A stretch of 10,117 nt of DNA from a virus (IMGVR_UViG_2526164647_000013); one strand, 5' to 3'. Counted from the stretch's first letter, positions 2,055 through 2,431 are shown. The notes: generated from the sequence alone by a model not told the origin. Program-made: numbers and translations.

Positions 2055-2256
2055 TTGCAAAGTTTGCCCCCAATTTGCCCCATTTAGTACCAGAGAACTG
2101 AAATAATGCAAGAAAATCAACAAATTACAAAGAAAGAACAATACGACCTGAACAAGTAAGGGCAAAAATCACAACTATCTGACTCATAAGTATTTTATTT
2201 ATTTTTCAATATGTTAAACATTATCAGCGACAACAATAAGCTACGATAACCCACTC

Positions 2257-2289
2257 TTTTTTGCCCCTTTTTTGCCCCTTTTTTGCCCC
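2257..2289 (+). repeat. Three perfect tandem copies of the 11-bp unit TTTTTTGCCCC, with further degenerate copies at 2063-2081 and 2300-2317
   Basis: Direct reading: TTTTTTGCCCC at 2257-2267, 2268-2278 and 2279-2289; TTTTGCCCC at 2300-2308; TTTTTGCC at 2310-2317; TTTGCCCCC and TTTGCCCC at 2063-2081 immediately after the int stop. All copies are in the same orientation. Confidence 0.9.
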
Positions 2290-2431
2290 TTATACAGCGT
2301 TTTGCCCCATTTTTGCCATCAACAATTTTCCTCATAAAGTCATTTCAAAGCCTAATAGCTGCTCTACTTTTTTCCTCAATATCATGTCGCCAGCAGGAAA
2401 CAACCTAATCCCTGTTTTAGGCCTCAAAGCT

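Follow-up and report, generated by a model that had tools for sequence, protein, structure and literature searches.

What is the function of a cluster of T-tract and GCCCC direct repeats that lies immediately past an integrase gene, on the way to a sit operon, in a 10,117-bp stretch of viral DNA (the window)? Two readings had been proposed in a first-pass annotation of the sequence. In reading (a), the repeats are arm-type recombinase or accessory-protein sites of an attachment site. In reading (b), they are T-tracts phased at about one helical turn, which curve the DNA and nucleate H-NS or IHF upstream of sit. We compared the locus with related prophages and phages, and weighed these readings together with two others.

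Repeat copies and attachment-site layout

We counted six exact copies of TTTGCCCC in the whole window (at 2063, 2074, 2260, 2271, 2282 and 2301), all on the + strand and confined to 246 bp (2063-2308). None of 200 dinucleotide-preserving shuffles reached this number (mean 0.39, maximum 3). Tandem Repeats Finder, run on the whole window, returned a sole array (2256-2291; period 11, 3.3 copies, 100% match), and this, with direct reading of the sequence, confirmed the three perfect tandem 11-bp units noted before. The two copies reported right past the int stop codon were also found, 11 bp apart and starting 9 bp beyond that codon (2052-2054). The two degenerate copies described as following the array are present but not in register with it. 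They are TTTTGCCCC (2300-2308) and ATTTTTGCCA (2309-2318), and their distance to the third unit is 19 bp and not 22 bp, so that they make up another pair, 8 bp out of register. The features of the site are as follows.

2063-2081, + strand: P′ arm pair of putative IntR arm-type sites, TTTGCCCC-N3-TTTGCCCC, 11 bp spacing
2106-2159, + strand: phage-borne 5′ end of ttcA, ATG plus 16 codons, with a TAA stop at 2157-2159 in the unrecombined form
2115-2127, + strand: IHF consensus match AATCAACAAATTA, between the P′ pair and the core, in the position of lambda H′
2130-2155, no strand assigned: Rac att core (identity segment), 26 bp, AAGAAAGAACAATACGACCTGAACAA, one mismatch to K-12 and Rac-SA53
2160-2168, − strand: partial inverted copy of the motif, GGGCAAAAA, directly past the recombination core
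2187-2199 (− strand) and 2204-2216 (+ strand): two IHF-like matches, each with one mismatch, in the AT-rich DNA that separates the core from the P-arm repeats
2257-2289, + strand: core-proximal array of the P arm, three perfect TTTTTTGCCCC units of 11 bp each
2300-2318, + strand: distal pair of the P arm, TTTTGCCCC and ATTTTTGCCA, 11 bp apart; outer limit of the int/att module

The stretch 2055-2318 is thus laid out as a P′ arm (2063-2081), a core (2130-2155) and the sites of a P arm (three plus two, 2257-2318). We located the core from the points at which similarity to integrated prophages ends (the attL match stops at 2155 and the attR match begins at 2113) and from the att site annotated in the Rac-SA53 record, which aligns with 2130-2155. 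Rac is known to substitute the N-terminus of TtcA (Liu et al. 2015, PMC4632033). We observed that the ttcA start is annotated at the equivalent position in Rac-SA53, and that in attL loci the reading continues into ttcA past CTGAACAA. The IHF match at 2115-2127 is the sole exact match to WATCAANNNNTTR in the window; it overlaps ttcA′ coding sequence, so its conservation alone is no proof of function. Counted as consensus matches only, there are three IHF matches in 306 bp, against 0.42 expected.

Phage DNA flanks the site on both sides: intR precedes it, and the P arm is followed by sit and tail-fibre genes. Neither arm is joined via the core to ttcA or ttcC-uspF host DNA, as it would be at the end of a prophage. 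Because int, P′, core, P and sit lie in one piece, the arrangement is that of a phage (attP) and not of a prophage end. Three elements of the lambda paradigm are present. The adjoining integrase belongs to a family with an N-terminal arm-binding domain and core-binding and catalytic domains (the window copy is broken), similarity of the host and phage flanks switches at a short core, and repeats unlike the core are found on both arms (two on P′, four or five on P) and are conserved with the integrase. By sequence comparison and by analogy with lambda, we regard it as likely that 2055-2318 is a complete, unrecombined attP-type site of a Rac-family lambdoid phage, with the TTTGCCCC repeats as its arm-type sites.

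The single orientation claimed for the repeats held for the six TTTGCCCC copies, but the partial inverted GGGCAAAAA copy had been overlooked. This copy is kept in Rac-type P arms, is absent from PHB10 and is not a family-wide feature; it is a misfit to the family pattern and counts against the arm-site scheme. It was considered as an inverted arm site like lambda P2, and this was not adopted because PHB10 and the wider family lack it.

We also observed a perfect 11-nt inverted repeat, GGTTATCGTAG / CTACGATAACC, with one arm at 2044-2054, overlapping the int stop ahead of the P′ pair, and the other at 2241-2251, just before the P-arm array (~0.05 expected by chance in the region). AAGCTAC likewise stands ahead of the P repeats in PHB10. 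The inverted repeat is possibly an accessory-protein site, or a source of RNA pairing in read-through transcripts. In E. coli EC2 (L096 5971-6096), RefSeq places a 41-codon minus-strand ‘hypothetical protein’ right over the P-arm repeats, almost certainly a gene-calling artefact of the repeat. An Rfam scan of 1900-2650 (E-value up to 1) found no RNA family, and a promoter and terminator scan gave nothing above shuffle level.

Linkage to intR and conservation across the integrase family

The gene upstream of the repeats is the Rac prophage intR. Over 1413-2155, where the match stops, the window shares 96-97% identity with intR and the beginning of ttcA in E. coli K-12, in thousands of other genomes and in Rac-SA53. 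Its earlier description as an integrase gene was right as to identity, but the gene is interrupted by IS1 and lacks residues ~58-197. The left part of the window reads as follows.

306-473, + strand: 3′ fragment of xisR (ydaQ), the Rac excisionase gene; last 55 codons; Pfam DUF1233 putative excisionase, 6e-17
475-646, + strand: 5′ part of intR, residues 1-57, most of the N-terminal arm-binding domain; the translation matches Rac-SA53 IntR
647-1414, − strand: IS1, 768 bp, within intR; InsA and DDE_Tnp_IS1 domains, with the IS1 ends read in the sequence
1415-2054, + strand: 3′ part of intR, residues ~198-411, catalytic domain; stop codon 2052-2054

The xisR fragment has the position upstream of intR that ydaQ has in Rac-SA53, and its 5′ end was lost beside an IS3-family transposase fragment (1-258, rve_3 domain). 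The IS1 insertion in intR was accompanied by the loss of residues ~58-197, and the frame resumes at PDPLSKTEF. Because of this interruption and deletion, intR is dead in the window. To the right of the repeats lie sitABCD, then remnants of tail-fibre and tail-fibre-assembly genes, and further IS copies. These include a second IS1 at the right end (about 9800-10117) and another IS3-family fragment at 8927-9613. Such an IS-riddled sequence fits a heavily decayed prophage, as in Shigella-like genomes.

We assessed whether the repeats follow intR or sit. The attR of a sit-carrying Rac-type prophage (in order uspF, a ttcA remnant, core, P arm, sitABCD and tail-fibre genes) was found in ~500 E. coli genomes, which match the window over 2113-2560. 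The sit operon is absent from K-12 Rac and Rac-SA53, but the 160-bp arm and its repeats are retained in their attR. Their similarity to the sit-carrying prophages stops immediately past the last repeat (ATTTTTGCCA) and gives way to divergence. For phage 21 and lambda-like phages, which carry sit together with other integrases, similarity to the window begins only at ~2330. These similarity boundaries on both sides mark 2156-2318 as the int-distal P arm, with the sit cassette just beyond. The comparisons indicate that the repeats travel with intR whatever cargo adjoins them, and not with sit, and that the array is part of the int/att module, as opposed to the sit cassette or sit regulation.

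On the sit side, an AT-rich sequence upstream of sitA (AATGATAATTATTTTCATT, about 2434-2452) is what we take to be a Fur-box-like element. A perfect 9-bp palindrome, AAACATAGC-N4-GCTATGTTT (2473-2494), resembles the MntR operator of mntH, and for this reason a terminator call at the same position was rejected. Near the annotated sitA start (2527-2552), an A-run has six residues in the window compared to seven in 9/9 other loci read. With the A6 run, the frame from the ATG at 2527 stops after six codons, so that SitA would start at the ATG at 2550 and its MHSIKKVT N-terminus is lost. The cause may be either a genuine frameshift or an error in sequencing.

A junction of int, attP and sit like that of the window was found in 7 of 5,426 E. 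coli genomes. In E. coli H22 the junction is flanked by prophage remnants (fragments of sitD and of int) and by a fuller prophage next to uspF, and at locus L177 a similar junction lies beside prophage remnants. This order has the look of a decayed junction between two tandem Rac-type lysogens; for the window itself we infer such an origin, as its wider flanks lie outside the visible sequence. The first-prophage remnants between uspF and the junction in H22 (L002 17829-20015) and L177 (7240-10000) comprise a piece of a sit permease with a frameshift, a DUF1627 fragment and the final 230 bp of int. They suggest tandem lysogeny at ttcA followed by deletion.

We then examined conservation in complete phage genomes with IntR relatives, taken from the GenBank phage collection; the IntR relatives in IMG/VR are mostly prophage predictions trimmed at the int stop, which show attL only or nothing downstream. 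Pairs of the form TG[CT]CC[CT]-N5-TG[CT]CC[CT] occurred solely on the int strand in the window and in ten further enterobacterial phage genomes (42-70% IntR identity), with zero pairs on the other strand in all of them. The named phages are PHB10, Stx2 II, Tritos, CharmingMan, RCIP0098, CobraSix, Mulock, HannyBb and phi315, of which Stx2 II and phi315 are of the 933W type, RCIP0098 and Mulock are Klebsiella phages and CobraSix is an Enterobacter phage. Relative to the int stop, the first pair is at −63 to +11; a second follows 197-211 bp downstream, and in some phages a further pair follows 30-40 bp beyond the second. PHB10 (70% identity) has TTTTTGCCCCT ATTATGCCCCT past the int stop and two more pairs 197 bp on. 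The other eight named phages, at 42-44% identity, have different cores and the same pairs.

Phased pairs flank the core in every IntR-family phage genome examined. In seven E. coli loci of 20-40 kb, the pair pattern was found at the att site only. By our own arithmetic, the pattern should arise by chance at about one in a million positions, or ~0.1 times in the DNA examined, yet every att site has a pair. Among Rac-type prophages, the P′ pair was seen in every attL read, and among loci with 65-100% identical IntR its TTGCC.C and TGCCCC columns are invariant although the flanks diverge. Ahead of the ttcA start, these two blocks are all that stays unchanged in the non-coding P′ DNA of IntR homologues (65-71% identical) that are inserted in ttcA of other enterobacteria. 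The number of P-arm sites differs among relatives, with one pair, two pairs or, in the window, three plus two sites.

More distant integrases gave a similar picture. The Pseudomonas phage phiCTX (32% identity) has GTTCCCA pairs 173 bp apart, which flank the attP core annotated in its record. In KT1 (28.5% identity, Pseudomonas), TGCCCTAA pairs lie 207 bp apart around a stretch that we read as tRNA-like. Where the sites lie, on which strand and how they are spaced is thus conserved for integrases as distant as 28-44% identity, and between genera. Judging from phiCTX and KT1, the motif appears to change with the integrase protein while the layout is kept. Overall, the comparison strongly supports reading (a), that of arm-type recombinase sites in an attachment site past the int 3′ end, with the IntR sites as putative ones.

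In 933W-type and related int genes (L088 2742-2802; the int 3′ ends of L089-L093, L185 and L186), we observed that the P′ pair lies inside the int frame. There it encodes a conserved C-terminal tail, FAPxMPQ/H (ARAPDVPQ in Stx2 II). The tail of the 933W-type integrase may be conserved owing to the DNA sites and not to the protein.

Full-length IntR of Rac-SA53 carries Pfam Arm-DNA-bind_2 (PF12167) at residues 5-69 (2e-26), followed by PF00589 (3e-23). In a survey of tyrosine recombinases, DUF3596 integrases, including those of Stx phages and Gifsy-2, are assigned to the arm-binding group, IntBPP-1 subgroup, as ‘putative’ (PMC8138268). A profile search of solved structures found none that covers the PF12167-type arm-binding domain of the IntR family. 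Compared to the 933W type, the arm-binding domain is 48% identical and the rest of the protein 42%. Because the domain is conserved only slightly better, the domain-specific signal is not sharp, and markedly better conservation of the arm domain was rejected as an explanation of the conserved motif.

Curvature, excisionase binding and unit number

To predict curvature, we used our own implementation of the Bolshoy-Trifonov wedge model on 31-bp stretches, with provisional wedge parameters. By this model, no other 31-bp stretch of the window is as curved as the P-arm array, at a predicted 36.6 degrees (mean 10.7, sd 6.0), and the P′ pair ranks fourth. The P arm of K-12 attR is at the 99.9th percentile of its own locus. 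With T6 tracts at an 11-bp period, the array is curved DNA by prediction, and this part of reading (b) is plausible. Its other part was not supported: the curvature is not family-wide, and nothing was found to link the array to sit. In CobraSix and Mulock, the predicted curvature of the P pairs reaches only about the 60th percentile, and the alignments indicate that the family conserves TGCCCC, not T-tracts or curvature.

The array could be mainly structural or regulatory: its curvature would nucleate H-NS, or attract IHF, so that sit or the prophage end is silenced without any sequence-specific contact with the recombinase. In addition to the predicted curvature of the array and of K-12 attR, this is favoured by the report that Rac alone, among nine K-12 prophages, has its excision under H-NS control (Liu et al. 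2015, PMC4632033). That control may conceivably be linked to the curved Rac arm. The family-wide conservation of TGCCCC and not of T-tracts argues against a mainly structural role, as does the inheritance of the array with intR whether sit is present or not. The best IHF consensus match is at 2115-2127 and not at the array. The operator-like elements of sit are >110 bp further on, and G+C-rich GCCCC blocks are not typical H-NS sites. We consider a mainly structural or regulatory array improbable. Curvature, as modelled, is likely a helpful secondary property of the arm and not its primary function.

The tandem units could instead be sites for the excisionase XisR and not for the integrase. The three head-to-tail units of the P arm resemble the tripartite direct-repeat Xis sites described for lambda and Gifsy-1, and XisR shifts a 294-bp AttR probe that includes the repeats. 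It does not shift a 291-bp AttM probe (Liu et al. 2015, PMC4632033). We remapped the primers of that study on the K-12 locus (L006). The AttR probe spans the uspF-side flank and the core and extends to just past the last repeat. AttM runs from 2667 down to 2377, starting at GTAAGGGCAAAAATCAC right past the core, with all P-arm repeats well inside it. Because AttM is unshifted though it holds all of these repeats, they are not stand-alone XisR sites. The motif is also not restricted to one arm, since it recurs on P′, an unexpected position for an excisionase site; the common allele has two units, not three; and the P′ pair is inside the int coding region in 933W-type phages. Taken together, these data make excisionase sites a very improbable account of the repeats.

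The same remapping gave an observation on XisR itself. In K-12 Rac attR (L006 2667-2497), the XisR shift requires sequence that extends past the AttM end towards uspF (PMC4632033). The excisionase site would then be in or next to the core or the B′ flank, or would straddle the GTAAGGGCAAAAATCAC end of AttM. This is an unusual place for an excisionase site.

We also determined how the number of units varies between strains. By alignment, among 482 E. coli genomes with this P arm, the proximal array has two units in ~445 and three in ~37. In the 13 loci that we read, two units were found in K-12, Rac-SA53, CFSAN029787, H22, SPF_0923 and L177-L182, and three in E. coli EC2 and the window. A search of the viral contig collection for the exact three-unit array gave no match. 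Variation in copy number had been named beforehand as a sign of a slippage-prone microsatellite. The array does vary, with two units common and three in a minority, but by one extra unit only, and the conserved sites are untouched.

On these grounds the array could be a functionless, slippage-prone minisatellite that happens to adjoin int, and the perfect identity of its three units fits a recent duplication. The only states seen, however, are 2 and 3. The constant placement, strand and spacing of the pairs at integrase identities as low as 28-44% and across genera, and the presence of a pair at every att site against ~0.1 expected by chance, are also contrary to this account. For the array as a whole we consider it exceedingly improbable. 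It probably applies to the third unit alone, which fits a recent one-unit slippage duplication on top of conserved sites.

Proposed mechanism and relation to known systems

The anatomy of the site, its linkage to intR, its conservation across the family and its polymorphism were observed here; that IntR binds the repeats, and in what manner, we infer by analogy. As in lambda, the C-terminal core-binding and catalytic domains of IntR would act at the 26-bp core, while the N-terminal arm-binding domain (PF12167) would dock on the TGCCCC sites. Sites 11 bp apart face the same side of the helix and could be bound side by side. Bends of the IHF type (2115-2127, and weaker at 2187-2216) would let one integrase bridge arm and core, and the complex so assembled would integrate into ttcA and excise from it. 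In the Rac lineage, the T-tracts flanking GCCCC are predicted to curve the P arm strongly and may aid wrapping. The site in the window is a relic, with intR destroyed by IS1 and xisR truncated, and sitABCD would be cargo next to the P arm and not a target of the repeats.

The closest known system, in effect the same one, is formed by the Rac prophage attachment sites of K-12 and Rac-SA53, with intR, xisR and integration into ttcA. Its intR is 96-97% identical to that of the window, the core has one mismatch, both P′ sites are identical, and the P arm is ~95% identical up to the last repeat. In K-12 and Rac-SA53, however, the arms are split into attL and attR, whereas in the window they are joined as P′-core-P. 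The window also differs in having three proximal units and not two, a broken intR and xisR, and the sitABCD cargo.

Lambda attP has arm-type sites P1, P2 and P′1-P′3, IHF sites H1, H2 and H′, and Xis sites, as established in Landy's work. The window site is similar in its place just past the int 3′ end, its size (~250 bp), its head-to-tail int-proximal sites ~10-11 bp apart and its far-arm sites 100-170 bp out. Its exact IHF consensus match lies between P′ and core, where lambda has H′. In both systems the integrase has an arm-binding domain of its own at the N-terminus, and an excisionase gene is adjacent. In contrast to lambda, the arm domain is PF12167 and not PF09003, and the motif is TTTGCCCC and not of the CAGTCACTAT type. 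The window sites are paired and in one orientation, with two on P′ and four or five on P, and they are putative sites read from the sequence.

Phage 21 attP (OL657228.1) has three tandem subsites of C4 plus an A/T-tract (P1P2P3, consensus YYTTCCCCAAAA) right after int, and the same phage region also bears a sit operon. It differs in its lambda-type integrase, in an icd-derived pseudogene annotated beside attP, and in having the motif on the opposite strand relative to int. Its sit operon is ~2 kb from attP, with other genes between. The attP of phiCTX (Pseudomonas aeruginosa) is similar to the window site in its IntR-family integrase with the same domain layout and in an 11-bp-phased pair on each side of the core. 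Its record annotates repeats R1-R3, IHF sites and a tRNA-derived core. Compared to the window, phiCTX has a GTTCCCA motif, 173 bp from pair to pair, and another host and core.

In the literature searched, we found no paper that maps the arm sites of IntR or of 933W-type integrases, and no arm-binding experiment with IntR. The Rac literature searched describes only the core and the binding of XisR to AttR, and the word ‘arm’ is absent from Liu et al. 2015 (PMC4632033). A bolder reading, which seems to us unlikely, is that PF12167 integrases (Rac IntR, 933W-type Int of Stx phages, Klebsiella and Enterobacter phages, phiCTX) share one deeply conserved arm code, with 11-bp-phased TGCCCC-like pairs ~200 bp apart around the core, and that the strongly curved attR arm of the Rac lineage could be the H-NS target for excision. 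If the arm code is true, attP boundaries would be predictable from sequence; we did not find it described in the literature searched.

The element is of a type that is standard biology, and what is added is modest: a paired-site rule for the family and a clean boundary between the att module and sit. A full Rac-type att site is now defined at the sequence level, with two arms, a core and an outer limit at ~2318. Previously, the literature searched offered no more than the 26-bp core and a single gel shift with the excisionase. For the sit operon, which is associated with virulence and fitness, our data suggest that the upstream repeats are phage recombination machinery and not sit regulation. 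Many Shiga-toxin phages have integrases that seem to follow the paired-site rule, with one pair at the end of int and another ~200 bp on. The rule could help to delimit prophages, to recognise tandem-lysogeny junctions and to design minimal attP cassettes.
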